A stretch of 64,000 nucleotides of DNA from an uncultured Gammaproteobacteria bacterium (GTDB taxonomy: Bacteria > Pseudomonadota > Gammaproteobacteria > UBA4575), in assembly GCA_963976865.1 (NCBI GenBank), contig CAXBLY010000001.1, forward strand, positions 580,354-644,353. Direction: 5' to 3'. Of the stretch, positions 10,782 through 37,602 are shown piece after piece. The position numbers and the translations under genes are program-made. Every line of letters starts with the position of its first letter. The first letter of the stretch is position 1. The notes below the pieces were generated by a model. That model saw only the letters and a list, made by a program, of their open reading frames with translations, searched no databases and was not told the DNA's origin.

Positions 10782-13034
10782 ATGGAAGCCAGTAATACTT
10801 CAGATCAGATTGCCAAAGGTCAGCGCAGATGGAAAATTCGTAAATTCGTCGATGTGCTGGCGCGCAGAGTGGTTGAAATAGGTGGCATAAGTGTCATTGC
10901 AGCCATCGCTCTAATCTTTCTATTTCTATTAAGCGTGGTGTATCCGCTTTTTGGGCAACCATCGGTAGATGAGATTGCTCAGTATCAGATATCTGATACT
11001 CAAGACGAAACGCTGTACTTGGCCATAGAAGAACAGGCTGAAATCGCATTGCGAGTCGGCAGTTCGGGCAACATACAATTCTTTAATGTAGAGAATGGCG
11101 AGATAATACTCAGGCGAAAACTGCCCATAGAACCTGGTAATAAAATCACTTCTTTTCGGGTAGCGAATGAAGCAACAGGATTGCTGGTAGCAGGAATGCA
11201 GTCAGGTGAATTGTTGTTCTTCAAACATGATTATGAACTGGAATTTACGGATACCAGCCGCATTATACATCCCGAAATTCTCTATCCTTACGGTGAACAG
11301 TTGTTCAGGGTTGCAAAAGGGCCCGTACTGGATTTTGCAGTTGGAGATAACGAGGATTCTACTGCAGTACTCGTTCGTACGTTGGATGGGAAAATAATAT
11401 TTCAGTCATTCACAAAAGAATCATCTTTTATTGATGAAACAACGACACTTGAATTAGGCGACAGCGATGAAATTCTCACCGTTGATCCTGTGCTCGGTCT
11501 GCTGGTTGATCCAGAGCAGGAGTGGGCCTACATACTGACTCAGGGTGGCGACTTGTCAGCCTACGATATTCGGCAGAATGATTTTCTCTTAAGAGAAAAA
11601 GTAAAAGTCACTGAAGGAGAAGTAAGACCCACATATCTCAAATTCCTAACCGGTGGAATCTCGTTATTAATTGGGGATAGCAGAGGCAAATTATCACAGT
11701 GGTTTCAGGTGCGTAGTGACGGCGAACTTGAATTCAGACTACAAAAGATTCGTGAGACACATATCGATAATTCACCAATAACAAGTCTGGCGACAGAGCA
11801 ACTAAGAAAAGGCGTTATAGCGGCAAGCCAGGCAGGCACGATTAAATTGCTATACACAACCAGTGAACGTGATTTGTTGACGATACCCGCGAGTGACAGT
11901 GCGATTCAGACATTAGCTGTTGCACCCCGCGCAGACATGTTTATTGCGGAAGATAGAAGCAGAACTATCAAGGCCTGGAATATAGACAATCATCACCCGG
12001 AAACATCACTTGCAGCGTTATGGGGGAAGATCTGGTATGAGGATTATGTGAAGCCGGACTACATCTGGCAGTCATCATCAGCCAGTAGCGATTTCGAACC
12101 CAAATACAGTTTAGTACCATTAACCTTTGGTACATTAAAAGCAGCATTTTATGCAATGATGTTTGCCATGCCTCTTGCCATATGCGGTGCAATTTTTACT
12201 GCTTACTTCATGGCACCACCGATGCGCGCAATAGTGAAACCTTCAATTGAAATCATGGAAGCACTGCCAACCGTGATTCTGGGATTCCTGGCGGGTTTAT
12301 GGCTGGCACCTTTTGTTGAATTACATCTGCCCGGCGTATTTAGTATTTTTATATTAATGCCCATAGGAATAATTCTGCTGTCGCTAGTCTGGTGGAAGCT
12401 GCCAGGGAGTACAAAAAGATTCATCCCTGAAGGATGGCAGGCAGCCGCGCTAATAATTCCATTGATTATCATCGCATTGGTATGTGTCAACGTGTCACCC
12501 TATGTGGAACGAGTGTTTTTTGATGGGAATGTACGCATATGGCTGAGTGAAGAACTTGGTATTGGTTTTGATCAGCGCAATGCATTAATTATTGGAATCG
12601 CGATGGGCTTTGCCGTGATACCAACAATATTTTCAATTGCGGAAGATGCCATTTTCAGTGTGCCAAAACATCTTACATCGGGTTCTCTGGCATTAGGTGC
12701 AACACCCTGGCAAACCTTGACACGGATCGTATTGCTATCCGCCAGCCCGGGTATTTTCTCGGCGGTTATGATCGGATTTGGTCGTGCGGTGGGTGAAACA
12801 ATGATAGTGCTGATGGCAACAGGTAACACGCCAGTGATGGACTTTAGTATCTTTCAGGGCATGCGTACATTGTCAGCGAACATTGCCGTTGAATTGCCTG
12901 AATCGGAAGTGGACAGTACGCACTATCGAATATTATTTTTAGCGGCATTTGTTTTGTTTATTTTTACTTTCTTTTTCAATACGGTGGCAGAAATAGTGCG
13001 TCAGCGGTTAAGAAAGAAATACAGTAGCTTATAA
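10782..13034 (+). CDS. pstC: phosphate ABC transporter permease PstC, long form (750 aa) with an N-terminal extension of about 430 aa
   Basis: The C-terminal third carries the BPD_transp_1 permease core (EAA-like loop region). The N-terminus has one TM helix followed by a large extracytoplasmic domain, as in Pseudomonas PstC (677 aa). Confidence 0.88.
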   Translation: MEASNTSDQIAKGQRRWKIRKFVDVLARRVVEIGGISVIAAIALIFLFLLSVVYPLFGQPSVDEIAQYQISDTQDETLYLAIEEQAEIALRVGSSGNIQFFNVENGEIILRRKLPIEPGNKITSFRVANEATGLLVAGMQSGELLFFKHDYELEFTDTSRIIHPEILYPYGEQLFRVAKGPVLDFAVGDNEDSTAVLVRTLDGKIIFQSFTKESSFIDETTTLELGDSDEILTVDPVLGLLVDPEQEWAYILTQGGDLSAYDIRQNDFLLREKVKVTEGEVRPTYLKFLTGGISLLIGDSRGKLSQWFQVRSDGELEFRLQKIRETHIDNSPITSLATEQLRKGVIAASQAGTIKLLYTTSERDLLTIPASDSAIQTLAVAPRADMFIAEDRSRTIKAWNIDNHHPETSLAALWGKIWYEDYVKPDYIWQSSSASSDFEPKYSLVPLTFGTLKAAFYAMMFAMPLAICGAIFTAYFMAPPMRAIVKPSIEIMEALPTVILGFLAGLWLAPFVELHLPGVFSIFILMPIGIILLSLVWWKLPGSTKRFIPEGWQAAALIIPLIIIALVCVNVSPYVERVFFDGNVRIWLSEELGIGFDQRNALIIGIAMGFAVIPTIFSIAEDAIFSVPKHLTSGSLALGATPWQTLTRIVLLSASPGIFSAVMIGFGRAVGETMIVLMATGNTPVMDFSIFQGMRTLSANIAVELPESEVDSTHYRILFLAAFVLFIFTFFFNTVAEIVRQRLRKKYSSL

Positions 13035-13039
13035 CTATT

Positions 13040-14704
13040 ATGAATACAGAAAAGCTGGGTTTTTTTAAAAGCGGCACACCTTGGGTATGGTTAAACGCCG
13101 GTGCTGTATCGATCAGTATGATAATGGTCATCGGCTTGTTGATATTGATAGCAGCGAAAGGCCTTGGTCATTTTTGGCCGAAAACAATCTGGGAAATCGA
13201 TTACCAGGAAGGTGATAAGCAGATCGTGCTGTTAGGTGAGCGGGCAAAAACGGAATCAGTGCCTGCAAAACAGCTTGTGGCATCGGGTCTGCATGTTGAG
13301 TTTGAAGAAGAGTTCGTAGAAAGAACAATGCTTAAAATCGGCAACCGTGAAATGTATGGAGTGGATTTCAAGCTTATTGTTAAACCATCTGAAAACGAGG
13401 TTCGCAAGCCCGTCGATGCCATTGTGTTCGAGCGCACTCAGTGGGGTAATTTTTACGGGTATCTGAAGTCTATTAGTGAAAATGGCAGCACAATTGATAT
13501 TGACCCGGATAATTTATGGAATGAATTACAGGAACGCTTAAAGCGAGTTGAAGACTTGCGTGATGAGATTCATGAAATAGAAAAGTTTGATATTGGAAAG
13601 ATCAATTACAAGATTGAAGACTTGCGTCTGAGAGAGCGTCGGATAGAACTGAGTGGCATCAGCGATCCTGCCATTATTGCCGATATCAGCGCTGAACGTA
13701 ATATTCTGAATGATAAGTATGAAGTATTAAAAACGGAACTGGCAAAGTTATATACCCAGATAGCACGTGATCAGGCATTGATGACAATACAAAATGGCCA
13801 GGAGAAGCTGATCAAGCTGGCAGATATTGTTAAAGCAAGTAAGCCCAATGCGATGAGTATATGGACTAAAATCGCACATTACTTTGTCAACCTGAAAGAT
13901 TTTATAGCCGATGATCCACGAGAAGCGAATACTGAAGGAGGCATATTTCCAGCAATATTTGGTACAGTCATGATGGTGTTGCTAATGTCTGTCATCGTGA
14001 CACCTTTTGGAGTAATCGCTGCAATTTATTTGCGTGAATATGCTAAACAGGGATTTATTACAAGACTGGTAAGGATCTCTGTGAATAACCTGGCGGGTGT
14101 TCCATCGATTGTATATGGGGTGTTTGGTCTGGGGTTCTTTGTATATTTTCTGGGGGGGAATATAGATCAGTTATTTTACCCTGAAGCTTTACCCTCGCCG
14201 ACGTTTGGATCAGGCGGGATATTATGGGCATCACTCACCTTGGCATTGCTGACAGTGCCCGTAGTTATCGTGGCTACCGAAGAAGGCCTGTCAAGAATAC
14301 CAAGTTCTGTGAGAGAAGGTTCGCTGGCTTTGGGGGCAACCAAAGCGGAAACGCTGTGGCGCACCGTGATACCTATGGCAAGTCCTGCAATGATGACAGG
14401 TCTTATTCTGGCAGTCGCGCGTGCAGCAGGAGAAGTTGCACCATTAATGCTGGTTGGTGCAGTCAAACTGGCGCCGTCTTTACCGCTTGATTTGAATGCT
14501 CCGTTTTTGCATCTGGAAAGAAAGTTCATGCATTTGGGTTTTCACATTTATGATGTTGGTTTCCAGAGTCCCAACGTTGAAGCGGCGCGTCCACTGGTGT
14601 TTGCAACGGCGTTAATTCTTGTCCTAGTAATAATATTACTAAACCTGTCTGCCATATATATCCGTAATCATTTGCGGGAAAAATATCGCACCATGGAACA
14701 TTAA
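13040..14704 (+). CDS. pstA: phosphate ABC transporter permease PstA, long form (554 aa)
   Basis: C-terminal ABC permease domain ([38 protein letters not shown]) with an N-terminal TM plus a coiled-coil-rich extension, comparable to Pseudomonas PstA (556 aa). Confidence 0.88.
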
Positions 14705-16650: not shown

Positions 16651-17442
16651 TCAGCCATTTTTAAATCGGGCAGGCTTTATATCCAAATTCTCAATAAACT
16701 GGCGTGTCACACCAAGCTTTTCAGCTGTCATTACCCGAATAGCTGTCAGTGTGTATTCAGGATACTCATCTGCCAGTGAACTTGCGACTTCATAGCATCT
16801 CACTGCCAGATTTTTATCTTCAAGTCCTGCTTCTTCTGCAAGCTTTTTGATGACGACATTCTCAGTTTGAGTGTCGTTATTTTTATTATTGTTTCCGGCT
16901 TTTTTAGCCGACTCATTCTTCGCAGGTCTGGCGGGTGCGCTATTGGTTGATTTGGCTTGTTGTTTGGGAGCCGTTGGTGCAGCAGCAGGCGCCGGTTTTT
17001 TTGCTTCAGGCGTTGCAGCTTGTGCTTTGGGTTTGGGGACTGATTGCAAGATGGCACTTTGTGATGCTTTCTGCTCTGCATTCGATACTTTCCACATATG
17101 CTCCATAATTTGTATGGCGCTTAATGTGGCAGTTGCAGTTAATCCTTTTGGAATGGCAGCGAGTACAATCTTCAGGTGGATTAACATAGACAGACGATGC
17201 CACTGGGGAGAGTCTATTTCGGCCTTGCTGAATCTGTCTCGCAATATTTTAATGTCATTAAGGTCACCACCAGTATTTTCAATCTCGCTTTCGACTAAAG
17301 TTTCGATATTAGCCAGTAACTGATGCAGGTCAGTGTAACTGCTTTGGTCATGCGTGCGAAATTCATCAAATCGAACAGCCCAATCAATTGAATACAGCTC
17401 TTGTGTAAGCGGACTGGTTTCCATGCTTGTGTTATTTTCCAT
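16651..17442 (-). CDS. hypothetical protein (263 aa) with Pro/Ala/Lys-rich low-complexity linker; paralog of the upstream gene
   Basis: Long ORF with a good coding look. Central KPAPAAAPTAPKQQAK low-complexity stretch. The C-terminal approx 40 aa (YPEYTLTAIRVMTAEKLGVTRQFIENLDIKP) and the N-terminal IDW region are shared with the adjacent 189-aa ORF. No recognisable family. Confidence 0.6.
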   Translation of the reverse strand: MENNTSMETSPLTQELYSIDWAVRFDEFRTHDQSSYTDLHQLLANIETLVESEIENTGGDLNDIKILRDRFSKAEIDSPQWHRLSMLIHLKIVLAAIPKGLTATATLSAIQIMEHMWKVSNAEQKASQSAILQSVPKPKAQAATPEAKKPAPAAAPTAPKQQAKSTNSAPARPAKNESAKKAGNNNKNNDTQTENVVIKKLAEEAGLEDKNLAVRCYEVASSLADEYPEYTLTAIRVMTAEKLGVTRQFIENLDIKPARFKNG

Positions 17443-17449
17443 ATTGTTA

Positions 17450-18019
17450 TTATTCTGGTCGAATGTCTAAATCGTCCAGGCGTTGCTTGCTGACATTGAG
17501 TTTGTTTGAAAGTAGCAGACGTAAAGCGTTAACTGTGCAATGTGGATATTTTTTCTTAAGCGCATTGATAGCAGCACTGTATGTTTCAATTTCCAGCTCA
17601 TTGTTGTTGGCTTTACTTAATATGTCTTCTACAGATTTTTGATCTTTTAAAAGCTGTTCGCGATCCTGTGCAAAGTAACCTTGCCAGCGAAAATCAGCTA
17701 ACAGGAATCCCAGCAAAATAGTCGTAGCCTGATCACCGCTTTCAAGTGCGGAACGTAACGTGAATGACTGTAGTAAACTGTTCCCTGCATACCAGGCACT
17801 GGAGCCTTCTTCTATCGTGTCCAGCCTGGCTTGTAATGCATTAATCTCAGTAGGTAGACCCGCATCTTTTAAGATGTGGTGCGCCCATCTGTCGACTTCT
17901 TTTAGACTTGAATGTAACGTGTCTGCACTCGGGTCGAAATGATCTTCAACCTGCTTGAGTGTCGCTAGTGGGTCTGAGTCTTTTATACTTGGCCAATCAA
18001 TTTGTGAGCTAGGCTCCAT
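17450..18019 (-). CDS. hypothetical protein (189 aa), paralog of the downstream 263-aa gene
   Basis: Shares the N-terminal IDW region and the C-terminal motif YPHCTVNALRLLLSNKLNVSKQRLDDLDIRP with the 263-aa neighbour. 8-nt intergenic gap suggests an operon. Confidence 0.6.
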   Translation of the reverse strand: MEPSSQIDWPSIKDSDPLATLKQVEDHFDPSADTLHSSLKEVDRWAHHILKDAGLPTEINALQARLDTIEEGSSAWYAGNSLLQSFTLRSALESGDQATTILLGFLLADFRWQGYFAQDREQLLKDQKSVEDILSKANNNELEIETYSAAINALKKKYPHCTVNALRLLLSNKLNVSKQRLDDLDIRPE

Positions 18020-26067: not shown

Positions 26068-26403
26068 TTAGAATTGCGCGTAGATAGCACCATTGTCGAT
26101 CCTGATACTTACAGATTCCAATAATTTTCCGGTACAGGGCCCATAAATACAGCGACCACTGTCGATTTCAAATAATGCACCATGATTGGCGCACTGGATA
26201 TAGTCTTTATCGTAACTTAAGAATACATCAGGCGACCAGTTTAAAGGGGCCAGATTATGTGGACAGCTATTTAGATAAGCAAAGACAGTATTATGATGGC
26301 GTACAATAAAAATATCACGCGCAGGGGTGAACTCTGATATAACAAAACTACGTGAATCTACTTCAGCTAATTCGTCGAAATCACAAAGTTTAATAAGAGG
26401 CAT
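26068..26403 (-). CDS. Rieske [2Fe-2S] domain protein (small ferredoxin-like)
   Basis: CPH...(16)...CANHG Rieske cluster-binding boxes, 111 aa. Confidence 0.8.
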   Translation of the reverse strand: MPLIKLCDFDELAEVDSRSFVISEFTPARDIFIVRHHNTVFAYLNSCPHNLAPLNWSPDVFLSYDKDYIQCANHGALFEIDSGRCIYGPCTGKLLESVSIRIDNGAIYAQF

Positions 26404-26408
26404 ATTGT

Positions 26409-26831
26409 TTGAATGATCTGAATATTAAATTTACCGATTCATTGCAGGTCGAAGAGTATTTTTACCGGGCTTTTAGAACGGGCAGTATTGAATTGATGAA
26501 AGATATCTGGGACAAAACAGATGAGGTAATTTGTATACATCCAGGTTCACCAAGAATTTATAGTTTCGACCTGATTATAGCAAGCTGGAAACAAATATTT
26601 TCTGCACAGTCAGGGACTTCAATTGAAATCAGCGAACCTGTATACAAGCTGCTAGATGGTATTTCAGTTCACTATGTAAAAGAAACACTCTCTATCAGTA
26701 ATAAAACAGTTGTATCTGTGTATGCCACAAATATATACCGTCAAACCCAGGATGGCTGGAAGATGATAGCCCACCACGCCAGTCCTGCCTTTGCCGATAC
26801 AGAAGCGAAAATAAATCCAAGTCTGCATTAA
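26409..26831 (+). CDS. NTF2-like / SnoaL-like (DUF4440-type) protein
   Basis: 140 aa. The pattern EEYFYRAFRTGSIELMKDIWDKTDEV...GWKMIAHHASP is typical of the ketosteroid-isomerase-like fold. Confidence 0.5.
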   Translation: MNDLNIKFTDSLQVEEYFYRAFRTGSIELMKDIWDKTDEVICIHPGSPRIYSFDLIIASWKQIFSAQSGTSIEISEPVYKLLDGISVHYVKETLSISNKTVVSVYATNIYRQTQDGWKMIAHHASPAFADTEAKINPSLH

Positions 26832-26847
26832 TGCAGGGATAAATGAT

Positions 26848-28077
26848 TTAATTATTATGGGTTCTCGGATCCAGCTCATTAACTGTGGGTGAAGTTTTGG
26901 GAATAGCAACAAAATTATCTTTACGCGCTGGGTCCACAGATGTGGAGATAAACATTCTCCAGCAGATTAAAAGTGCCAGTATGAAGTGAATTGCGGCAGT
27001 GAAATAAAATAACATATAGTAATTATAGCTATACATTAAACTTGAGCCGATCAATGGGCCCAGTGCAGCACCAATCGAATATAACAATAGTAGACCACCA
27101 CTTATTTCCAGAGCATCGTTAGTGCCAACATAGTCATTCGCATGTGCCAGACACAAGGCATACAGGGGAAAAGAGAATGCACCAAATAACGTAGTTAAAG
27201 CATACAGCCAGACTAGCCCCTCTGTTAAATGGGTAATAATGACAACTGCGATTATCACAGACCCCACACTGGCAAAGGTAATTATCAATCGTCGATCAAC
27301 CAGATCAGATATCCATCCCAGAGGCCATAATGCAAGCACACCTCCCAGCACAGACATACTCATAAACCATGTCACCTGTTCGACTGTCAGGCCGTAGTCC
27401 AGCGCAAACAAGGGTCCCAACGTCCAGAATGCGCCAGTAGCAAGGCCAACACACAAAGCACCTATCACGCCTGCAGGTGAAATACTGTATAGCCACATAA
27501 TTCTTAATTGAGCTCTGGCGACAGGAGTAGGTGTAGGTGACTTCGTAAGCGCTACAGGGATGACAGCTAATGACAGCAAGATAGACGCAAATATGAATAA
27601 TATAAATCCGGTCGGATGCGATATGCTAATTAGCTGTTGCCCGGCAATAATCAGAGTGAGATTGATTAAAGTATAAAATGATAAAATTCTTCCGCGACTC
27701 GCATTGGTTGCGCGATCATTTAGCCAGCTTTCAATGACCATCTGCATACCTGCAAAACATAAACCTGAAAGTGCACGTGCCAGCCACCAGGTGACCTCGT
27801 TAATTATCAGAATGTGTAACAACACACTGACCGACGCTATGGCAGCAAAGGCGGTAAATGACCGAATATGGCCCACACGCACCACCATCCAGGGGCAGAT
27901 AGTGCAGCCAAGTATCAAGCCAACATAAAATGCAGAGCCCATAATCCCTATTGAAAGCGCAGTGAAAGTTTCTATATCTGCGCGTATAGGTAATAAAGTC
28001 CCTTGAAGGCCGTTACTTGTCTGAATCAGTGCAGTACTGAATAACAGTGCAATAATTGAAAGTAGAGTGATTCGCAT
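26848..28077 (-). CDS. MFS transporter
   Basis: 409 aa with 12 predicted TM segments and the MFS-like motif GRILSFYTLINL. Confidence 0.75.
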   Translation of the reverse strand: MRITLLSIIALLFSTALIQTSNGLQGTLLPIRADIETFTALSIGIMGSAFYVGLILGCTICPWMVVRVGHIRSFTAFAAIASVSVLLHILIINEVTWWLARALSGLCFAGMQMVIESWLNDRATNASRGRILSFYTLINLTLIIAGQQLISISHPTGFILFIFASILLSLAVIPVALTKSPTPTPVARAQLRIMWLYSISPAGVIGALCVGLATGAFWTLGPLFALDYGLTVEQVTWFMSMSVLGGVLALWPLGWISDLVDRRLIITFASVGSVIIAVVIITHLTEGLVWLYALTTLFGAFSFPLYALCLAHANDYVGTNDALEISGGLLLLYSIGAALGPLIGSSLMYSYNYYMLFYFTAAIHFILALLICWRMFISTSVDPARKDNFVAIPKTSPTVNELDPRTHNN

Positions 28078-28203
28078 AGCATCATTAAAGCATGAGTTAT
28101 GCCAGTCTGAGGAAAATAAATCTCTGGAAGTTTGACGAGCGTAATAACATCAACCTGCCTTATAAATCTTTGCTTGTAACGTCAAGCCCAGAACAGGGCA
28201 AAA

Positions 28204-29925
28204 TCAAAAATAGTAGAAAATCAAACAGGCACTCAGTAGCACGGCTACCCAGATCACCATATTACCCACCGAAGCGCCACGTGCGATTGGACTTTTAGGA
28301 CCATGTGTCTGAAAGGCTGATGTTGTAATTATACCGAGGCTGAGTTGCTTGAAATTCTGAACGTATGTGAGTAACGAAGCGAACGCTGTGGAAAGTGTAC
28401 TGAGCAAGCCATTGAGTGGTTTTCGGTAGAACCAGTCGAAGTCAAGGTTGATCGATTTGATTTCTGGTGGGTACCAGCCATTTCTAAACAATACCACGAA
28501 AGCCAATGCAGCGAAGAACAGTAACTGAAGCTGAGTGATGATGTGATCAAACGTATATGGGTGGAACTCCATCCCATATGGTAACCATTGATAGAGCAGA
28601 TCAGGGAATACCCCAATAAGTATGCAGGCGGCCGCAGTCATGCCCATGGCAACTAACATGTTCAAAGGTGCTTCTTTGCACTGGTGGTGTTGGTCGTGAG
28701 CAAAGAAACTAAAGAAGGGTACTTTAATCCCTGAGTGGTCTAACACACCGGCAGAGGCAAATAATAAAACCAGCCAAATGATCCAGTGCCCTTGTTCTGC
28801 GACAGCGTATAAGATAATACCTTTAGAAATGAAGCCGCTAAATAAAGGAAATGCTGAAATCGACATAGCGCCGATAATGCAAAAGATGGTTGTCCACGGC
28901 ATCGATTTATACAGACCGCCTAATTCTGATGCTTTGACTGTGCCGACACGATGTAACACCGCACCCATACTCATAAACAGTAGTGCTTTATACAGAATGT
29001 GGCTGAAGGCATGAGCGGCAGTACCATTAAGTGCCAGTTCAGTACCCACCCCCACACCCACAACCATAAAGCCAAGCTGGTTGTTTAAGCTGTATGAGAG
29101 CACTTTGCGTAAATCATTTTCCAATACTGCAAAAAAGATCGGAAAAGCAGTCATGAGAGCGCCAATCCAGATCAGGGATTCTGTCCCGGCATAAGCTCGG
29201 GCCAGACAATACACAGCCAGTTTTGTGGTAAAGGCGGAAAGGGCCACTGTCCCTACCGGGCTTGCATGTGGATAAGCATCTTGCAGCCAGTTGTGCAGTA
29301 GCGGGAATGCGCACTTGATACCAAAGGCCAGGAAAATCAACAGACCTGATAATGTATCAATAGTCATGGCATTGAAAAGTATCGACTCCGTCTGCTGGTA
29401 GTGCAAAATACTTCCAAGTAATAAAAGCAGTCCTGAAGTGATGTGAATCAACAGGTATCGCATCCCGGCCTGCTTTGATTGATTGCTGCCGCCCAGCCAC
29501 ACAATAACAGTCGAAGAAATCGCGCTGATTTCCCAAAAGATAAACAGTGTGAGTAAGTCACCAGCCAATACAGCACCAATTGCCGAGCCGGCATAAATTG
29601 CAATAGAGGACTGCTCTGCTTTATTAGAACTGTGTAGTGAGTACACTGCTGCCAGAAATGCAGCAAGAATAAAAATTAATGTGAAAATCCAGCTTAAACC
29701 GTCAATTCGTATTGGGTCTAAAGTGTAACCAAATGTATTGATAGTAAGGATGAGTTCATCTGGATAATTTAAAAACCCCGCAAGTGCTATCAATGGCAAT
29801 GCAAATGTAGCCACGCGGCGCATATTCCCTGGCATAAACATCATGACAATGCCGCCCAGAATCAAAATAATACCAGGATGATTTACGAAATCATTCGAAA
29901 AGAAATCAATCATAATAATCCTCAT
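28204..29925 (-). CDS. Mrp/complex-I antiporter-like subunit, NuoL/MrpA N-terminal-domain-like (573 aa)
   Basis: Proton_antipo_M core (LLHNWLQDAYPHASPVGTVALSAFTTKLAVY). The longest of three paralogous antiporter subunits, with no MrpB-like C-terminal fusion. Confidence 0.8.
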   Translation of the reverse strand: MRIIMIDFFSNDFVNHPGIILILGGIVMMFMPGNMRRVATFALPLIALAGFLNYPDELILTINTFGYTLDPIRIDGLSWIFTLIFILAAFLAAVYSLHSSNKAEQSSIAIYAGSAIGAVLAGDLLTLFIFWEISAISSTVIVWLGGSNQSKQAGMRYLLIHITSGLLLLLGSILHYQQTESILFNAMTIDTLSGLLIFLAFGIKCAFPLLHNWLQDAYPHASPVGTVALSAFTTKLAVYCLARAYAGTESLIWIGALMTAFPIFFAVLENDLRKVLSYSLNNQLGFMVVGVGVGTELALNGTAAHAFSHILYKALLFMSMGAVLHRVGTVKASELGGLYKSMPWTTIFCIIGAMSISAFPLFSGFISKGIILYAVAEQGHWIIWLVLLFASAGVLDHSGIKVPFFSFFAHDQHHQCKEAPLNMLVAMGMTAAACILIGVFPDLLYQWLPYGMEFHPYTFDHIITQLQLLFFAALAFVVLFRNGWYPPEIKSINLDFDWFYRKPLNGLLSTLSTAFASLLTYVQNFKQLSLGIITTSAFQTHGPKSPIARGASVGNMVIWVAVLLSACLIFYYF

Positions 29926-30130
29926 CGCGTTTCAGGATCTTGCGCAACTGTTTTGCTGAAAGCACGATCACCATGTAAGCAGCAAATCCATAAAAAGCGT
30001 AAAAACCAAACCATTCTTCAAATTCAAAGTGTCCGTGCTTGTGATGAAAGACATCAACAAGCAGTACCGCAGCGCAAAGCGCATAAAGTGTGTAGACAAC
30101 AAAATTAATGAATTTTTTACTGTAGATCAT
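29906..30130 (-). CDS. small two-TM membrane protein (74 aa) embedded in the Mrp-like operon
   Basis: Overlaps the upstream stop (ATGA) and the downstream start by 20 nt, indicating translational coupling. His/aromatic-rich loop HHKHGHFEFEEWFGFYAFYGF. Confidence 0.55.
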   Translation of the reverse strand: MIYSKKFINFVVYTLYALCAAVLLVDVFHHKHGHFEFEEWFGFYAFYGFAAYMVIVLSAKQLRKILKRDEDYYD

Positions 30131-31599
30131 CTTAAATTGAGTAAAAGTAAAAAGTCATAAACATAAGGTAGTAAAAAGAATAGCACCAGGCATAAACCTG
30201 CTGTGACACATAAAGGCATGACGACTGCGAATGGTGCTTCCTGTATCCCTTTGCTTGCATGCCTGGGTTTAAGCATGTATCCATTAATTGCTATTGGCAT
30301 CAGGTAAATAATATTGAGTAATGTACTGATTAAAAATGCAATGGCAATGATGAGTCTGTCAGCGCTGAGTGCCCCGTCAATTAAAAACCATTTGCTCCAG
30401 CTGCCAGCAAGAGGCGGCAAGCCAATAATGCTGATCGCAGCGATAGTATAAGCCGCAAATGTAAATGGCATGGCGCGCCCTAAACCGTGCATATCACTAA
30501 TAAGTGTTTTCTTGGTGGCTGTGTATATCGCACCCGCGCAAAAGAATAGTGTAATCTTGCCTGCAGCATGAGTCGCCAAATGCAGTGATGAACCAATAAT
30601 GCTGGTTGAGGTTGCCAGCGCTGCGCCCAGAACAATATAAGCCAACTGGCTTACCGTGGAATAAGCCAGACGTGCTTTCAGATTATCCTGCTGTAATGCA
30701 ACCAGTGAAGCTAACAGCATTGTAATAGTCGCGACCCAGATAATTGGAGAGTTAGTGCCCGTGTCAGTGAGGACATCAATTCCAAATATATAGACAGTGA
30801 CCTTTAATACACAGAACACACCGGCTTTTACGACCGCAACAGCATGCAGTAATGCGCTTACTGGTGTAGGTGCCACCATTGCCGAAGGTAGCCAGCGATG
30901 GAAAGGCATTAATGCTGCTTTACCAATACCGAAGGCATACAAAGCAAATAGCAGCATCAATAAACCGTCAGGTAACCGGTTTTCCAGTATTCCTCCGACA
31001 GTAAAATCGAGCGTGCCCGTGATACTCCACGTCCATAGGATAGCCATTAACAAAAAGCCAATGGATGTGCCGATTAAAATCCCCAGGTAGACCCGGGCGC
31101 CGGCTTTGGCGTCATCTGTGCCTTTGTGAGCAACCAATGGGTAAGTGCTGAGAGTGAGTAGCTCATAGAAAATAAATAGAGTGAGCAGATTGGCTGAATA
31201 AGCGATACCCATGACAGCTGCCATAGCAAGACAGAAGCACATATAGAAACGTGCTAAATGTTTTTCCTTGTTGGCGTTCATATAGCCAATGGCATAAATA
31301 GTAGTGACTAGCCACAATCCTGATGCTACACAGGCATATAAAATGCCTAGAGGCTCGATATGAAATGCAATTGGAATGGAATCAACAAGCGTGAGTAATG
31401 TGAAACTTTGATAAAAAGCTTCTGGCCCCAAATTCACAATCGAAATGGTCACACCAAGCAAACCTATCGCCGTGCAGACAAATAATAATTCGATTAGACC
31501 GCGGTACCTGGCACCGGCAAATATTAACAGTGCGCCGATGACGGGCACTAACATGCTGGCATAAACATACATTTGCAGGTTTTGGCTTATGTCACTCAT
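30127..31599 (-). CDS. Mrp antiporter subunit D-like (NuoM/N family), copy 2
   Basis: 490 aa, Proton_antipo_M domain. 4-nt overlaps with its neighbours. Confidence 0.85.
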   Translation of the reverse strand: MSDISQNLQMYVYASMLVPVIGALLIFAGARYRGLIELLFVCTAIGLLGVTISIVNLGPEAFYQSFTLLTLVDSIPIAFHIEPLGILYACVASGLWLVTTIYAIGYMNANKEKHLARFYMCFCLAMAAVMGIAYSANLLTLFIFYELLTLSTYPLVAHKGTDDAKAGARVYLGILIGTSIGFLLMAILWTWSITGTLDFTVGGILENRLPDGLLMLLFALYAFGIGKAALMPFHRWLPSAMVAPTPVSALLHAVAVVKAGVFCVLKVTVYIFGIDVLTDTGTNSPIIWVATITMLLASLVALQQDNLKARLAYSTVSQLAYIVLGAALATSTSIIGSSLHLATHAAGKITLFFCAGAIYTATKKTLISDMHGLGRAMPFTFAAYTIAAISIIGLPPLAGSWSKWFLIDGALSADRLIIAIAFLISTLLNIIYLMPIAINGYMLKPRHASKGIQEAPFAVVMPLCVTAGLCLVLFFLLPYVYDFLLLLNLR

Positions 31600-33071
31600 T
31601 GTTTAAACAATGCCTCTGCTGCCGCAGTTGCCACATCCACTGGATAGCTGCTGTCGATACCAAAGTACAAGCTGGTTAGTACCATTATCCAGGTGCAGGC
31701 GAGGAGTAGTGGAGGAGCTTCTTTAATGCCTGCATAACTTTGACTTGGTTGACGAAAATATATCTGTTCAATGACACGCCAAATATAAATCACCGATAAC
31801 AGAGACGTGAATAAAACAATGACTGCAAGCCACCAATAATCTTTTTCAAGGATAGCTAATACCAGATACCATTTGCTGATAAAGCCGGATGTCAATGGCA
31901 CGCCAATTAAAGCAAGCCCGCCAATCACAAATGCTGCTGATGTCCATGGCATGACACGACCAGCACCGGCCAAATTAACAAGAAGGGTGGAATGGAAACG
32001 GGAATATAAACAGGCCAGGCACATGAATAAAGCGCCTTTAATAAAGGCGTGATTAAACAAATGAATAATGCTTGCGATCAGGCCCGCTTTGGTTTCGAGG
32101 GCAATTCCCATAGTCATATAACCAATCTGTCCCAGACTGGAGTAGGCTAATAAACGTTTCACGCCGGGCTGAAAAATAGCAGTGAATGAACTTAAAATGA
32201 TCGCCACAATTGACAGAGGTAACAGAATGTAACCCAGGTGAAGTAAATCAAATGAGAATTCAAATCCAAAGATAGTGTAGAAAACACGATAGAGTAAATA
32301 TAAAGCAACCTTGGTAGCAGTGGCTGCTAAAAATATACTCACTACAGATGGAGCGTGTGCATACGCATTTGGAAGCCAGTGATGCAGAGGGAATAATGCA
32401 AGTTTTAGGCAAATACCTACAGTGAAAAATGCAAATGCTGCATGTATTGCACGAAAGCCATCAACTTCATGGATGCGTACCTTCAAGTCAAGCATGTTTA
32501 AGGTGCCGGTTTGCATATACAGCAAGCCGATACCAATAAGTATGAAGGTAGCGCCAATGGTACCCATGATTAAATATTCATAGGAGGCAGTGAGCGCTTT
32601 GCGGTCATCTCCCATGGCAATCATGGCATAGGAGGCAAGTGAACTGATTTCAAGAAATACAAATACGTTAAATGCATCGCCAGTGGCTACAATTCCTAAC
32701 AAGCCTGTAAAGCAAAGTAGAAAGGCGGTATAGAATAATGCATGTTTACCGGCATCTATTTCATTTTCGACAAGCTGACGTGAGGCCAGTAGCGTAATGG
32801 AAGCAATAGCAGTGATTAATACCAGCACAAATGCGCTAATCAGGTCGATATGGTACTGGATACCCCAGGGAGCTGGCCAGCTCCCTAGCTCATAGGTTAG
32901 TGCGCCACCAGCTCTTACCTGCAGAATTAATAATACGGAAATAGCAAATGCAACCCAGGCAATGGCCGTTGCAAATAACCAGGGCAGCCTTGACCTCGGC
33001 AGCAGGCTGCATAAAGGTGCTGCAATAAGCGGAATAACAACTTGCAGAATTGGATAATGTGCTGCGATCAC
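31596..33071 (-). CDS. mrpD: Mrp antiporter subunit D-like (NuoM/N family), copy 1
   Basis: 491 aa, Proton_antipo_M domain (AFLFFTVGICLKLALFPLHHWLPNAYAHAPS). Confidence 0.85.
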   Translation of the reverse strand: MIAAHYPILQVVIPLIAAPLCSLLPRSRLPWLFATAIAWVAFAISVLLILQVRAGGALTYELGSWPAPWGIQYHIDLISAFVLVLITAIASITLLASRQLVENEIDAGKHALFYTAFLLCFTGLLGIVATGDAFNVFVFLEISSLASYAMIAMGDDRKALTASYEYLIMGTIGATFILIGIGLLYMQTGTLNMLDLKVRIHEVDGFRAIHAAFAFFTVGICLKLALFPLHHWLPNAYAHAPSVVSIFLAATATKVALYLLYRVFYTIFGFEFSFDLLHLGYILLPLSIVAIILSSFTAIFQPGVKRLLAYSSLGQIGYMTMGIALETKAGLIASIIHLFNHAFIKGALFMCLACLYSRFHSTLLVNLAGAGRVMPWTSAAFVIGGLALIGVPLTSGFISKWYLVLAILEKDYWWLAVIVLFTSLLSVIYIWRVIEQIYFRQPSQSYAGIKEAPPLLLACTWIMVLTSLYFGIDSSYPVDVATAAAEALFKQ

Positions 33072-33430
33072 TCTTCTTCTAGCTCGATTTTTTCGATTTC
33101 CTGCTCATCAATAGACTGATAGCGCTTGTTTATATTCACCACCAGGGCTAAACCAACAGCTGTCGTTGCAACACTGACGACAATCGCTGTCAGTATAAGG
33201 ACATGAGGTAATGGATTGGAAAACACGCTGTAGCCTTCTTCAAGTATAGGCGCCGTGCCTCCATCTACTTTGCCCATTGAAATAAATAAAATGAACACAG
33301 ATGTCTGGAAAATATTCAGGCCGATGAGTTTTTTCAGCAGATTAGTGTGATCAATCACAATGTACAGACCTGCCATCATTAGCATTACGCAGATCCAGTA
33401 ATTATATTGAGCAGAAATGAGATCAATCAT
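33068..33430 (-). CDS. mrpC: Mrp antiporter subunit C (NuoK-like)
   Basis: 120 aa, three TM, NuoK/MnhC pattern (LIGLNIFQTSVFILFIS). Confidence 0.8.
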   Translation of the reverse strand: MIDLISAQYNYWICVMLMMAGLYIVIDHTNLLKKLIGLNIFQTSVFILFISMGKVDGGTAPILEEGYSVFSNPLPHVLILTAIVVSVATTAVGLALVVNINKRYQSIDEQEIEKIELEEE

Positions 33431-33852
33431 TATTTCTTGAATTTGGCGAAAGAGTAAAAAATAGAAATAATTACCGTTGCTACCGTTATGCCAACACCCA
33501 GTTCAATAATTAATATTCCCCAATGCTGCCCATGTACCGGGTCATGGGCGAGTACGTTGTAATCCAGATAATTGCCACCGAGAAAAATACCTAAAATGCC
33601 AACGCCGGCATACAGCAGCAGGCCCAGCGCCGCTAAAATTCTCGCGGTATTAAGTGAAATGACTTTTTCTGCACGTTTGGTACCGTGTAGAAGGCTATAT
33701 AAAATAATGCCACTGGCAAAAATCACGCCAGCCTGAAAGCCGCCACCAGGGCCATAATCTCCATGAAACTGCACATATAATGCTAATAGTAATATGGCGG
33801 GGATCAGAAGATGGCTTGATTCAAGCAGGATAGGGTTTTTTCTAACACTCAT
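33430..33852 (-). CDS. mrpB: Mrp antiporter subunit B (MnhB domain)
   Basis: GDYGPGGGFQAGVIFASG is the hallmark MnhB motif. 140 aa. Confidence 0.8.
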   Translation of the reverse strand: MSVRKNPILLESSHLLIPAILLLALYVQFHGDYGPGGGFQAGVIFASGIILYSLLHGTKRAEKVISLNTARILAALGLLLYAGVGILGIFLGGNYLDYNVLAHDPVHGQHWGILIIELGVGITVATVIISIFYSFAKFKK

Positions 33853-34358
33853 GATTTATTTCGGCGAGAGCCCCGGTTAAGACCAAGTAATAGCATCACA
33901 GCGATTAACGCTGTGAATACAACGGCCACTTCACCCAGGGTATCAAAGCCCCGGTAGCTTGCGAGCACAGAAGTCACTATATTGGGGATACCAATTTCTT
34001 CACCACTTTGCTCTATATAACGTGGCGCTACATGAGTATGGACAGGTGCATTGGGGTCACCGAATGCTGGCATGTCGCTGGTGGAATAAATTAAACCAGC
34101 ACCGGTCACTAATACCACAAATACAGGGATTACATGATTCTTACGTGTAAGCACCTGATGTTTGCCGGTAACGGCGAGCGCGCTCAGGAATAATACGGTT
34201 GAGATACCGGCACCCACTGCGGCCTCGGTAAAAGCGACATCAACAGCGTCCAAAAGGACAAAGAATGTTGCAGACAACAGGCTGTATATTCCGCCAAGCA
34301 TAATCACTGAAAGAATATTACGCATGGCAATAATGGCGATTGCGGTAGTCGCAAGCAT
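33849..34358 (-). CDS. DUF4040 / MrpA C-terminal-domain-like protein (MbhD/E-like)
   Basis: DAVDVAFTEAAVGAG (DUF4040 signature) and NIVTSVLASYRGFDTLGEVAVVF (MnhB-type motif). Corresponds to the C-terminal part of canonical MrpA encoded as a separate gene. Confidence 0.7.
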   Translation of the reverse strand: MLATTAIAIIAMRNILSVIMLGGIYSLLSATFFVLLDAVDVAFTEAAVGAGISTVLFLSALAVTGKHQVLTRKNHVIPVFVVLVTGAGLIYSTSDMPAFGDPNAPVHTHVAPRYIEQSGEEIGIPNIVTSVLASYRGFDTLGEVAVVFTALIAVMLLLGLNRGSRRNKS

Positions 34359-34378
34359 GCTTAATAAAAATATGTTGA

Positions 34379-34702
34379 CTAGGTTTTCGATGATGAATCC
34401 TTACCAGTGATTAAGTGACGGTCTTCGTGTATGGCTGTATTGACGAGAGCGTGAATAGCTGTAGGCCCGGTGATTAACAGAAACAGCAGAATCAATATGA
34501 GCTTGATTGATGCCATGCTGATTCCTGCATACAGAATTAAACCACTAATGATCAAAATGGCGCCAAAGCTGTCGATCAAACTGGCTGCATGTACTCGGGT
34601 AATGAAGCTTGGCATTTTCATTATGCCGAATGCACCGATTAGACAAAACAGGCAACCTGTTAATACCAGTATAGTACTTAGTCCATAAATCAGTAACTGC
34701 AT
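34379..34702 (-). CDS. mrpG: Mrp antiporter subunit G
   Basis: 107 aa. RVHAASLIDSFGAILIISG and TGPTAIHALVNTA match the MnhG/PhaG family. Confidence 0.8.
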   Translation of the reverse strand: MQLLIYGLSTILVLTGCLFCLIGAFGIMKMPSFITRVHAASLIDSFGAILIISGLILYAGISMASIKLILILLFLLITGPTAIHALVNTAIHEDRHLITGKDSSSKT

Positions 34703-34977
34703 TAAGAGCCTTCCTCTTCGCGATGCCCTAGATCATTAAAGCGGTACAGCTTTAAAACGGCGACTGTGCCGGTAAAATTAATCAGTGAATATACCAGTGC
34801 AATGTCCATAAATGCAGGGCGCTGCATATAAAATCCCAGAATGGCGATAGCCAATACAGTGGCAGTACCAAAAGTGTTGATTGCCAGGATACGGTCATAC
34901 AGAGAGGGACCTAGCCATGCACGTAAAATTACGATCACCATGACTATCATCATTGAAATAAGTGCTGCAGTAATCAA
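34702..34977 (-). CDS. mrpF: Mrp antiporter subunit F
   Basis: 91 aa. YDRILAINTFGTATVL...DIALVYSLINFTGTVAVLK matches the MrpF/PhaF family. Confidence 0.8.
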   Translation of the reverse strand: MITAALISMMIVMVIVILRAWLGPSLYDRILAINTFGTATVLAIAILGFYMQRPAFMDIALVYSLINFTGTVAVLKLYRFNDLGHREEEGS

Positions 34978-35453
34978 CGAATGCCGCCTTCCAGTTTAGT
35001 GACACGTTTGTCTATGTCTCCGTCTATAATTCCCTGAGCAGTATGATCTGTTAATGCATGCACAAGAATTTCATTATTATTGATATCAACACTTATTGTT
35101 CCGGGCGTAAGAGTTATGCTATTTGCATGCACCGCAAGCCCTGTGGTGGTTTTTTGACTGGGTCTGGAGCATACAGTTTGTGGCTGAAGTCTATTGCTTG
35201 AGCTTAAAATACAGCGTGCAACATGTATGTTTGATTTGGTTATCTCTTTCAGTAACCAGGGAATATAAAGCGGTAAGCGCAGATTGATTTTAATCCTCTC
35301 ATGATGAGAGCTATAGATCTTTAGTCTGATAGAGAGATAGGTAACAAGTGCGCAGGAAACCACCCCAAAAATAATAAGATTGGTCTTGAAATAACCAGAT
35401 AGCAGCAACCAAAGTATAAATAGGCTGGTAAAACTAAGAATGACTGTTTTCAA
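34974..35453 (-). CDS. mrpE: Mrp antiporter subunit E
   Basis: 159 aa, with the conserved SITLTPGT motif of MnhE. Apparent TTG start with no clear SD. First gene of the cluster. Confidence 0.75.
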   Translation of the reverse strand: MKTVILSFTSLFILWLLLSGYFKTNLIIFGVVSCALVTYLSIRLKIYSSHHERIKINLRLPLYIPWLLKEITKSNIHVARCILSSSNRLQPQTVCSRPSQKTTTGLAVHANSITLTPGTISVDINNNEILVHALTDHTAQGIIDGDIDKRVTKLEGGIR

Positions 35454-35471
35454 GTTTTATTGTAATTTATC

Positions 35472-35485
35472 AATGAATATTCATT
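35472..35485. promoter_or_regulatory. perfect 14-bp palindrome AATGAATATTCATT 19-32 nt upstream of mrpE
   Basis: Sits in the 55-nt gap between the epimerase gene and mrpE. Extended 9-0-9 near-palindrome TCAATGAAT|ATTCATTAA. A candidate operator. Confidence 0.35.
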
Positions 35486-35508
35486 AACATACCTAGCCAC
35501 AGGGAATA

Positions 35509-36411
35509 TTACAAATTTTTTAGGTCTAAACTTCTGAAGCAGTCTTCAAGCCCTAATGCCAGGGTAGGAAATTGAATCTCCACATCCAGTAATGCATTCA
35601 TTTTATCAAGTGATAAACGCCTGGATTCATTGATAAAGGACAACATCCCTGCGGATAATTTTTCCTGGGCCTGTGACAGGGGTACGCAGGGTGGTCTGGG
35701 TAAGCCTGCAAAGTCGGCTATTTTGTAGTAATAATCGGACATTGAGGTTGGCTGACCGTCTGCAATATTAATCACCTCATTTTGAATCTTATTTAACATC
35801 GCAGAAACACATACTGCAGCAAGGTCTGCCACATGAATCCGATTGCTGGGCGGGGCCTCTTCAGGACAGATGACAGTAATGTTTTTAAGTCTTTCCAGAG
35901 GTAGACGGGAAGGGCCATAAATACCCCCCACTCTCAGGATGACATACTCGCAACGATGCCGAAGACAGTACCTGATTAGCGCTTTTTCAGCATAAACACG
36001 GCGTTTGGCTCGGGCAGTCACAGGCGCCAGCGGGTGATCTTCAGTTACCCAGTTTCCCTGACAGTCTCCATAAACTCCGGAGGTACTTATATAGACAATT
36101 TTCCGTGGTGGGCTGGATTTACATAAATTCAGGAAATTTTCTATACGGTGATCATCATTATCCGTATGACTGGGCGGGGCCAGATAATACGCCTGGTCGA
36201 TGTGAGCTGCCCATTCAGGCTGATCTCGAATAGGTGTATCCAGGTCGCAAATAACGGCATGCAATTGCCTGTCGACAAGTGTCTGACAACTTGATTCAGA
36301 CTGAACGACACAGGTTGGGTTTTGCTGATTATTTAAAAGCAGTTTGGCTAGATAAGAGCCAAGAAAACCGCAGCCAATAATAACAGGCTGCGGGGAAGTA
36401 TCGGCTGACAC
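35509..36411 (-). CDS. NAD-dependent epimerase/dehydratase family protein
   Basis: N-terminal Rossmann motif VIIGCGFLGSYLAKLL. 300 aa SDR-extended type. Confidence 0.75.
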   Translation of the reverse strand: MSADTSPQPVIIGCGFLGSYLAKLLLNNQQNPTCVVQSESSCQTLVDRQLHAVICDLDTPIRDQPEWAAHIDQAYYLAPPSHTDNDDHRIENFLNLCKSSPPRKIVYISTSGVYGDCQGNWVTEDHPLAPVTARAKRRVYAEKALIRYCLRHRCEYVILRVGGIYGPSRLPLERLKNITVICPEEAPPSNRIHVADLAAVCVSAMLNKIQNEVINIADGQPTSMSDYYYKIADFAGLPRPPCVPLSQAQEKLSAGMLSFINESRRLSLDKMNALLDVEIQFPTLALGLEDCFRSLDLKNL

Positions 36412-36429
36412 TGAAAACTGACTTAAGCG

Positions 36430-37602
36430 TTATCGTGATGCGATATGTAAACCTTTTTTGGCGCAACGTTGTGCGTCAATAGGTTCATCTAGAAACTCAT
36501 GCAGTTCGGCGAGCTCTGCATAGGTGCCAACTAATGGCTTGCGGCTTAGGCTGGACTCAAGATAACTTTTGGCCTTACCCCAAAGCTTTTGGTGTTTGTT
36601 GAGGCGGCCTAATGTCAATAACAGACCTGCGCTGTCTTTGTGGTGATTTAACCAGTCTTCACTTTGCCTGGTTCTCTGGGGAAGGTTGTCGATTTTCAGT
36701 AACCCATATTCCTGGACCAAATCTTCATCCCAGTTCATATCAAGTTGAGTCTTGATGATTTGTTCAGCGACAGTGTCGTGTCCATGCCGGATTAGCGTAC
36801 GAACATAGGCGTGTAACAGGGATGCGTTAGCCTGTAATTGCTTGTGATAGATCTTCCATAATCCGGACAGACGCTCCTCAGAGGAATTAGTGTCGTAATG
36901 ATCGATAGCCCACTCCAGACATCTGTTCACAGTATACTGAATGCGCGCTGCCTTGCTTGCATGGGGCAGCAGTTTCGGTAAACATGTTTCAACACCCTCA
37001 ATGTTATTGGTCTTGATATATGCATGGCAAAGCGTATTGAGATTACATATATTATCTACACTTTCATCACGCAGTAACATTAACGCTTTCTCGGGTTTCC
37101 CGTCTTCCAGACAGAATTCAGCTTCAATGGTGTTCGCTAGTGATTTCCCGCCTTCCAATTTTCTCAGACTGGTGACATGCGCATCACGTGTGTCATTCTG
37201 TCCGGAATTATGTGCGCAGTGTGCGGCAAACAGATGCTGGGCTTTTTGCATTGGGCTTTGTTTGATGTGCTTGGTTGCTGTGCGCATTGCTTCAGTCCAG
37301 TTGAACTGGCTGAAGTTAAGCATCGACGATTCCAGAGAATGCATAATTTCAAGATTACGTTTTTGCTGACGCCGGGTTTTTATGCGCCCCGGCAATCTGA
37401 ATAAGGCGCCAATAATGCGAAACAAAAAATATAAAATAATAAACGCAGCGATTGTCCAGTAATAAAACTGGGTAAGTGGCAGTTCTACAGTCGTGTCGCC
37501 GTAACTGAAAACAGCAAATCCTGGCTGGTGTCGCAGAATCAATATGTCCACACCGGCAACGATGAGACCAATGAGTAAAATGAATAATATTCGCTTAATC
37601 AT
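36430..37602 (-). CDS. hemY: heme biosynthesis-associated TPR protein HemY
   Basis: HemY_N-type N-terminus with two TM helices followed by a TPR-like region. Follows hemX as in E. coli and Pseudomonas. Confidence 0.8.
   Translation of the reverse strand: MIKRILFILLIGLIVAGVDILILRHQPGFAVFSYGDTTVELPLTQFYYWTIAAFIILYFLFRIIGALFRLPGRIKTRRQQKRNLEIMHSLESSMLNFSQFNWTEAMRTATKHIKQSPMQKAQHLFAAHCAHNSGQNDTRDAHVTSLRKLEGGKSLANTIEAEFCLEDGKPEKALMLLRDESVDNICNLNTLCHAYIKTNNIEGVETCLPKLLPHASKAARIQYTVNRCLEWAIDHYDTNSSEERLSGLWKIYHKQLQANASLLHAYVRTLIRHGHDTVAEQIIKTQLDMNWDEDLVQEYGLLKIDNLPQRTRQSEDWLNHHKDSAGLLLTLGRLNKHQKLWGKAKSYLESSLSRKPLVGTYAELAELHEFLDEPIDAQRCAKKGLHIASR

Follow-up and report, generated by a model that had tools for sequence, protein, structure and literature searches.

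The stretch of DNA considered here (hereafter the window, meaning the whole 64,000 nucleotides analysed) derives from an uncultured gammaproteobacterium of the GTDB lineage UBA4575 (assembly GCA_963976865.1, contig CAXBLY010000001.1, positions 580,354 to 644,353), and its minus strand harbors at 28204-35453 an operon related to the Mrp (CPA3) antiporters. The original prediction, made from the sequence alone, had placed ten open reading frames (ORFs) in this region. All ten were confirmed at exactly the predicted coordinates and are real genes, each of them being conserved in order in dozens of genomes. They are given below from the first gene to the last, with lengths in amino acids (aa).

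34974-35453, minus strand: mrpE, 159 aa; Pfam MNHE, 1.2e-28; first gene of the operon, kept in related loci
34702-34977, minus strand: mrpF, 91 aa; Pfam MrpF_PhaF, 1.7e-17; PDB alignments to MbhB, MbsB, and MrpF
34379-34702, minus strand: mrpG, 107 aa; Pfam PhaG_MnhG_YufB, 1e-21; TIGR01300, 67 bits versus a cut-off of 63.1
33849-34358, minus strand: Ac, MrpA's C-terminal domain as a separate protein, 169 aa; Pfam MbhD and MbhE, fused
33430-33852, minus strand: mrpB (MbhF-like), 140 aa; Pfam MnhB, 7e-28
33068-33430, minus strand: mrpC (NuoK/MbhG-like), 120 aa; Pfam Oxidored_q2, 4e-22
31596-33071, minus strand: D1, antiporter-like subunit of the MrpD/MbhH/MbsH type, 491 aa; Pfam Proton_antipo_M
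30127-31599, minus strand: D2, core of 14 transmembrane (TM) helices of the MrpA-N/NuoL type, without a lateral helix, 490 aa; Pfam Proton_antipo_M
29906-30130, minus strand: x, small subunit without a family, two TM helices predicted, 74 aa
28204-29925, minus strand: D3, distal antiporter-like subunit with a predicted TM15-lateral helix-TM16 arrangement, 573 aa; Pfam Proton_antipo_M

The gene order is therefore E-F-G-Ac-B-C-D1-D2-x-D3, with all seven Mrp domain types encoded in one tightly packed operon. Searches with Pfam and NCBIfam models assigned nine of the ten ORFs, x being the one without a family, and Proton_antipo_M was detected in all three large proteins (E-values of 4e-62, 5e-58, and 4e-40), in agreement with the predicted presence of three antiporter-like subunits. 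Nearly all junctions had been predicted to overlap by 1-20 nucleotides (nt), which was borne out at eight of the nine (overlaps of 1, 4, or 20 nt). The sole non-overlapping junction of the operon is a 20-nt gap between mrpG and Ac, and the overlap between x and D3 probably measures 8 nt rather than 20, because the orthologues of D3 begin at the second ATG, which would place its start at 29913 and reduce the protein to 569 aa. Every ORF was intact, with invariant functional residues. Promoter and terminator scans of 27900-36600 returned counts equal to the shuffled expectation.

With respect to classification, the operon encodes homologues of all seven domain types together, in contiguous and overlapping genes, and each of D1, D2, and D3 carries the charged chain typical of the Mrp/CPA3 family (TC 2.A.63), namely TM5 Glu, TM7 Lys, TM8 Lys/His, and TM12 Lys. 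Within this family, Group 3 (Swartz 2005; Ito 2017; Haja 2021) is characterized by an irregular gene order, the lack of a full-length mrpA, and, in some cases, multiple mrpD genes (PMC5703873; PMC8415708). The operon agrees with this description in its three genes for proteins of 490-573 aa, its separate C-terminal domain of MrpA (MrpA-C), and its order EFG-Ac-B-C-D-D-x-D. It falls outside Groups 1 and 2, since no single MrpA of 800-950 aa is encoded and the order is neither mrpABCDEFG nor mrpA'CDEFG (cf. the operons of Staphylococcus aureus and Vibrio). Moreover, NCBIfam equivalog cut-offs were exceeded by D3 (NF009310, 685 versus 564 bits), Ac (NF009159, 194.7 versus 141), MrpB (NF009162, 180.9 versus 120), and MrpC (NF005621, 135.8 versus 126), and MrpG passed the general MrpG equivalog TIGR01300; for D1, D2, MrpE, and MrpF no NCBIfam model was reached above its cut-off. 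The operon is a member of the widespread, named, and partly curated Group 3 Mrp class and no new kind of system. The cluster had been called atypical and rearranged, which is correct relative to textbook Mrp but overstated for an arrangement that is widespread, described as Group 3 in the literature, and partly covered by NCBIfam equivalogs.

Relatives of the 573-aa D3 are encoded in at least 594 stretches, as revealed by a pattern scan in which each species was represented by a single genome. The best 80 of these (D3 identity of 54-87%) come from Alpha-, Beta-, and Gammaproteobacteria. When all ten window proteins were searched with tblastn, the full order E-F-G-Ac-B-C-D1-D2-x-D3 was recovered in 62 of the 80 loci, and nearly all of the other 18 were cut by contig ends or lacked one weakly detected short gene. 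The canonical order was not seen among these related loci, and an assembly error can be dismissed as the source of the unusual order because the same order occurs in 62 independent assemblies. The conservation of the ten-gene arrangement, the 74-aa gene included, appears far beyond chance. In addition, the nine closest loci (L001-L007, L011, and L079) are likewise flanked by hemD/X/Y, SnoaL, Rieske, and RecG, indicating that the operon has been stably inherited in the lineage of the window. Many relatives originate from marine, saline, or sediment samples according to their record titles.

Outside the Proteobacteria, a plasmid of the haloarchaeon Haloarcula marina (NZ_CP100409; 4315-11762 of the retrieved locus L085) harbors a nine-gene cluster with E-F-G-DUF4040-MnhB-C followed by three large subunits, which is known by annotation. 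It has the same order, orthologues of D1, D2, and D3, and the same MrpF Asn as the window operon, and differs in the lack of an x gene, a long insertion in its D2, and identities of only 31-41%. The shared layout and MrpF Asn raise the question whether genes were transferred between the two domains. The cluster adjoins a transposase, a universal stress protein, and a TrkA-C gene. Among the plasmids of PLSDB, no relative of D1 above 36% identity was detected, the best match being the Haloarcula cluster itself. Judged from these comparisons, the layout is old, vertically stable, widespread with conservation across hundreds of proteobacterial species, and shared with a haloarchaeon. Furthermore, D2-x-D3 was observed alone as a three-gene unit in two gammaproteobacterial metagenome-assembled genomes (L022, 8370-11674; L027, 8188-11680), where the upstream genes lie on the opposite strand and no E-F-G-Ac-B-C-D1 occurs within ~8 kb upstream. 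The isolated occurrence of this trio suggests that it may be a separable module.

The three large subunits turned out to be non-equivalent. In phmmer searches of PDB sequences, D1 scored 225 bits against MbsH, 198 against MbhH, and 187 against MrpD, versus at most 121 against other subunit types, so that the predicted MrpD-like identity of the 491-aa protein was upheld. The 490-aa D2, which had likewise been labelled MrpD-like, gave NdhF, MrpA, and NuoL as its top PDB matches, together with a weak, near-threshold Pfam match to Proton_antipo_N. Its TM8 motif, APTPVSALLHAVAVVKAG, is specific to MrpA/NuoL/HyfD and contains the switch histidine, His252, in 75 of 75 orthologues. The TM8 histidine has been described as the switch of MrpA (Lee et al. 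2022). At the same position D1 and D3 carry Leu, as do MrpD, NuoM, and NuoN, and the histidine is thus confined to D2. Each of the three subunits retains the full channel chain (TM5 Glu, TM7 Lys, TM8 Lys, TM10-11 His/His/Lys, and TM12 Lys), the residues being invariant or nearly so in 71-81 orthologues per subunit (71 sequences for D1 and 81 for D3).

Phylogenetic analysis by neighbour-joining, with Escherichia coli NuoL/M/N and HyfB/D/F, S. aureus and Vibrio MrpA/D, and five PDB chains as references and with shadow ORFs from high-GC loci excluded, resolved D1, D2, and D3 as three separate clades, each including its Haloarcula orthologue (bootstrap of 75, 100, and 99%, respectively). D2 grouped with MrpA/NuoL/HyfD at 57% bootstrap, and D3 formed a clade of its own with no supported sister group, MbsH' included. 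The AlphaFold2 model of D3 contains a 14-helix core followed by helices at 459-481, 497-541 (45 residues), and 553-572, a predicted TM15-lateral helix-TM16 arrangement. Its best Foldseek match was MrpA (7qru_A), with NuoL, ND5, and NdhF chains also matched, over ~620-656 columns. D3 was also considered as an orthologue of MbsH', its top phmmer match (112 bits); this was rejected, as the two stand apart in the tree and the MrpD and MrpA scores are nearly equal. The description of the 573-aa protein as NuoL/MrpA-N-like therefore holds for its architecture, with the predicted lateral helix, and fails for its channel residues, which are of the MrpD type, and for its separate clade. Given the TM8 histidine, the tree, and the predicted lateral helix, the labels of the 490-aa and 573-aa subunits need correcting: judged by motif and grouping, D2 is the MrpA-N-type core, and D3 resembles NuoL/MrpA solely in carrying what is predicted to be a lateral helix. 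For annotation, this means that the label 'subunit D' covers three non-equivalent proteins.

The small subunits, by comparison with solved structures, point to the Mbh/Mbs systems of Pyrococcus: the best solved homologues of MrpF, MrpB, MrpC, Ac, and D1 were MBH or MBS chains, ranking above bacterial Mrp (for MrpC, MbsG with 81 bits). The DUF4040 protein Ac had been proposed to correspond to MrpA's C-terminal domain, and it was indeed identified as this domain in the form of a separate protein on the basis of its alignment to positions ~610-800 of full-length MrpA models in NCBIfam and, in PDB searches, to residues 643-813 of MrpA as well as to MbhD/MbhE and MbsD/MbsE. Its motif is the Mbh-type LTEAAVG, as opposed to LTQLxxE in Group 1/2 MrpA. 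In Ac, E45, D139, and E143 do not vary across 69 orthologues, E45 corresponding to E706 of Anoxybacillus and E69 of MbhD, and H30, F39, and E117 of MrpB are invariant in 70. Along the proposed cation path, the MrpA-C carboxylates and the MrpB His and acidic residue are thus kept, and the Asp of MrpF and the two His of MrpC are replaced. The N-terminus of Ac is ~10-17 residues shorter in the window and its five closest genomes than in distant orthologues, the later start shortening the first helix.

The 74-aa protein x showed no significant Pfam match, its sole NCBIfam match lay far below the cut-off, and PDB E-values were 0.65 or worse; it is annotated as hypothetical in all sources. Nevertheless, in 78 loci x occupies the place between D2 and D3, and it has the conserved pattern D.FYHKH..F..E...GFY..YGF...R..L.R.EDYYD. 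The sequence suggests two TM helices, a His-rich loop, and a C-terminus that is first basic and then acidic. The histidines of the loop follow the form F-Y/H-H-K-H and the C-terminus ends in the conserved EDYYD; a loop of this kind may be capable of binding protons or a metal. The possibility that x is a detached piece of a known subunit was rejected, since a hidden Markov model (HMM) of x found nothing in the Haloarcula D2 and D3, MrpA, NuoL, or the Hyf subunits; its single strong match, a read-through ORF at a high-GC locus, is an artefact that arose because the longest ORF had been chosen. The most fitting view of x is that of a tenth subunit, unnamed but conserved, in the bacterial form, and in annotation the gene should be kept as a conserved subunit and not discarded as a spurious ORF.

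The gene order E-F-G-(D/E)-B-C-D had been said to mirror MbhA-H, which was substantiated by the published correspondence of MbhA-H with MrpE, MrpF, MrpG, MrpA-C (D+E), MrpB, MrpC, and MrpD (PMC7419157). It also equals that of the stand-alone Group 3 Mrp of Pyrococcus furiosus, mrpEFGBB'CD (Haja et al. 2021, PMC8415708), with which the first seven genes agree in order and content, including a fused MbhD/MbhE protein (named 'MrpB' there), an MbhF-like MrpB' as a protein of its own, followed by MrpC and MrpD. The Pyrococcus operon has one antiporter-like subunit and no MrpA-type core, whereas the window operon adds D2, x, and D3; in addition, Pyrococcus MbhB and MbsB carry Asp where the MrpF of the window clade carries Asn. 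Compared with canonical Group 1/2 Mrp (Bacillus pseudofirmus 7QRU, Anoxybacillus flavithermus 6Z16, and Dietzia 7D3U), the seven domain types are common to both, D1 is MrpD-like, D2 has the TM8 His-switch motif of MrpA, and the positions that match E687/D776/E780 of MrpA-C and H34/F41/D121 of MrpB (in B. pseudofirmus numbering) are conserved. On the other hand, the operon differs in its order, its split MrpA, the lateral helix on an extra third subunit, and the additional 74-aa subunit, and it has kept neither the MrpF Asp nor the MrpC histidines.

The operon also resembles the membrane arm of complex I (NuoN-M-L and NuoJ/K) and E. coli Hyf in having three antiporter-like subunits, the distal one with a lateral helix and a TM16 anchor, as well as a NuoK-like MrpC, a NuoJ-like MrpA-C, and equally many type-I proton paths (path counts and lateral-helix function after PMC8165549). 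In contrast to these systems, it lacks NuoH/HyfC, NuoA, and a redox (quinone or hydrogenase) module, so that only L/M/N-like, K-like, and J-like parts are present, and it possesses the MrpE/F/G/B cation module that complex I lacks. Furthermore, the predicted lateral helix of D3, with ~45 residues, would span one or two subunits and not three. More distant parallels are provided by the cyanobacterium Aphanothece, whose Group 3 mrpCD1D2EFGAB acts, according to the reviews that cite it (PMC5703873), as a Na+/H+ antiporter, by Candidatus (Ca.) Nitrospira alkalitolerans, in which a Group 3 Mrp is followed by two NuoM/L-like genes (PMC7784846), and by Ehrlichia chaffeensis, whose dispersed F, G, DUF4040, B, C, and E genes and three D-like genes partly rescue a Na+-sensitive E. 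coli strain (PMC8395091). Likened here by description and annotation only, these systems share with the window operon the lack of a full-length MrpA and the presence of extra MrpD/A-like genes, but their orders and gene numbers are unlike it.

Considering the full Mrp domain set, the three potentially functional proton channels, the preserved core of the cation module, and the lack of an adjacent catalytic module, which agree with the predicted stand-alone CPA3/Mrp-like cluster, the operon likely encodes a stand-alone ten-subunit Group 3 Mrp (CPA3), i.e., a secondary cation/proton antiporter driven by the proton motive force, and the transported cation is probably sodium. In such a complex, the subunits would lie in the membrane in gene order as E/G/F/B-AcC-D1-D2-D3, with E-G-F-B, MrpA-C, and C forming the cation module and D1-D2 retaining the canonical MrpD-MrpA interface. 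D3 would be added distally, its ~45-residue lateral helix clamping the neighbouring subunit and reaching one or two subunits, and x may act as an accessory subunit at the D2/D3 junction. Protons would enter via three type-I channels plus a composite channel, giving four paths as in complex I, and their inflow would power the outward transport of one Na+ (or K+) by way of the module of small subunits. The exchange would then be more electrogenic than in canonical Mrp, for which ~2 H+ per Na+ are assumed (PMC7419157), and may suit saline or alkaline habitats.

Several points weigh against this reading. The tree is a neighbour-joining tree with few references and unsupported deep nodes, the D3 model is of medium confidence (predicted local distance difference test score of 74.7), how the subunits are arranged, what x does, and the stoichiometry are all inferred, and no biochemical or structural study of the three-antiporter, nine- or ten-gene clade was found in the searchable literature. 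Most importantly for the substrate, MrpF carries Asn34 in 67 of 67 orthologues and in Haloarcula, replacing an Asp that is present in every reference compared (MbhB, MbsB, and the MrpF of Anoxybacillus, Bacillus, Staphylococcus, and Vibrio), that is highly conserved and located on the proposed Na+ entry path (Anoxybacillus D35; Steiner and Sazanov, PMC7419157), and that is functionally important (B. pseudofirmus D38; Lee et al. 2022). Similarly, MrpC carries Gln42 in 70 of 70 orthologues at the position of the MbhG Asp (D37) and the MbsG Glu, and T43/F46 at the positions of Anoxybacillus H37/H40; the corresponding ligands are D37/H41 in MBH (MbhG), versus H37/H40 in Mrp and Glu in MBS. Na+ as the substrate is therefore not secured, and ion specificity is not transferable from the characterised systems, as the original prediction had cautioned and as these clade-specific substitutions reinforce. 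Since charged and histidine ligands of the cation path are exchanged for amides and hydrophobic residues, and K+- or Ca2+-specific Mrp systems are known (PMC5703873), the same Mrp-type architecture might serve another ion or coupling, such as K+/H+, Ca2+/H+, or otherwise non-Na+ exchange. This alternative is considered unlikely given that the central carboxylates are retained (Ac E45/D139/E143, MrpB E117, and the TM5 Glu of D1), that the relatives stem largely from marine or saline samples, and that NaCl sensitivity is rescued in part by the Ehrlichia gene set, whose similarity is one of annotation only. The changes in MrpF and MrpC do not rule out Na+ transport, and the marine, saline, and sediment origin of the relatives fits a role in Na+ and pH homeostasis.

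Much less probable is that the operon supplies the membrane arm for a redox-driven pump resembling Mbh/Mbs/Mbx or complex I, with a catalytic module (hydrogenase-like, FeS, or of the CO-dehydrogenase type) located elsewhere in the genome. The identity of the gene order with MbhA-H, the closeness of the proximal subunits to solved MBS/MBH chains instead of bacterial Mrp, and the match of three antiporter-like subunits plus a lateral helix with the complex I arm would all be compatible with such a pump. However, no hydrogenase, NuoH-like, or iron-sulphur (FeS) module gene and no second mrp cluster was detected in the 64-kb window, and searches for NuoH/MbhM-, NuoB/C/D/I-, and MbhJ-N-like genes in the window were likewise negative; nor was an MbhJ-N-type module conserved beside the 80 related loci, whose 10-kb flanks contain no conserved non-Mrp neighbour but lineage-specific synteny only. 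The predicted absence of adjacent hydrogenase, NuoH-like, and FeS genes thus holds for the whole window. It is true that genes of the aerobic CO-dehydrogenase/xanthine-dehydrogenase type (coxS-, coxM-, coxL-, and coxG-like), named by recognising their sequences, lie within a few kb of the operon in ~15 alphaproteobacterial loci (including L008, L029, L038, L046, L047, L057, L061, L062, L078, and L080), but they occur at ~1/5 of the loci, on either side and on either strand, and probably reflect lineage synteny rather than a functional partnership. Moreover, in MBH the redox module replaces MrpA (PMC8415708), whereas here an MrpA-type D2 and a distal, capping D3 are present. An origin of the unusual order in an assembly or annotation artefact, or in the decay of the cluster, has a negligible chance of being correct: nothing speaks for it, the only oddity being the short N-terminus of Ac, which is common to the five closest genomes, and both order and junctions are identical in the 62 independent assemblies, with intact ORFs and invariant functional residues. 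The stand-alone Group 3 antiporter hence remains the preferred explanation.

The surroundings of the operon correspond to the original prediction, with an epimerase upstream and an MFS transporter downstream.

Upstream flank, neighbouring genes: NAD-dependent epimerase and hemYXDC
Downstream flank, neighbouring genes: MFS transporter, SnoaL-like protein, small Rieske protein, SBF transporter, and RecG

Downstream of the operon, the Rieske-domain protein (26068-26403, minus strand, 111 aa) and the SnoaL-like protein (26409-26831, plus strand, 140 aa) occupy the same place in each of the nine related gammaproteobacterial loci. Elsewhere the window contains gammaproteobacterial housekeeping genes, including phoBR-pst-phoU, gmk, spoT, argH, lysA, dapF, xerC, hslU, ubiB, and uvrD. 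The two pst permease genes (10782-13034 and 13040-14704, both on the plus strand) are unusually long, encoding 750 and 554 aa, and match BPD_transp_1 in their C-terminal parts only. In addition, two ORFs between phoU and an OmpA-family gene (16651-17442, minus strand, 263 aa; 17450-18019, minus strand, 189 aa) showed no Pfam match at E <= 1e-5.

Relative to the searchable literature, the reassignment of the large subunits, the location of the predicted lateral helix on the third subunit, the invariant Asn of MrpF and Gln of MrpC, and the conserved 74-aa subunit appear to be new. The lateral-helix clamp would have moved to an extra distal subunit, and two proposed cation-path residues have been changed systematically. 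It is possible, although we hold this view tentatively and with some doubt, that the bacterial and haloarchaeal clade constitutes a functionally distinct Mrp subclass, a free-standing antiporter with as many proton channels as complex I, the subunit x, and a remodelled cation path, which together would result in an H+:cation ratio (at least 3) or a substrate unlike that of any characterised Mrp. If so, it would be the nearest living analogue of the entire membrane arm of complex I in a form that lacks a redox module. Mrp antiporters serve as a model for the coupling of distant proton channels in the membrane arm of complex I, and to our knowledge the solved Mrp structures all contain two antiporter-like subunits. 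The clade is accordingly a reasonable target for biochemistry: if expressed and solved, the three-antiporter form would test whether an added proton channel alters the H+/Na+ ratio and whether the MrpF aspartate is needed for cation entry.

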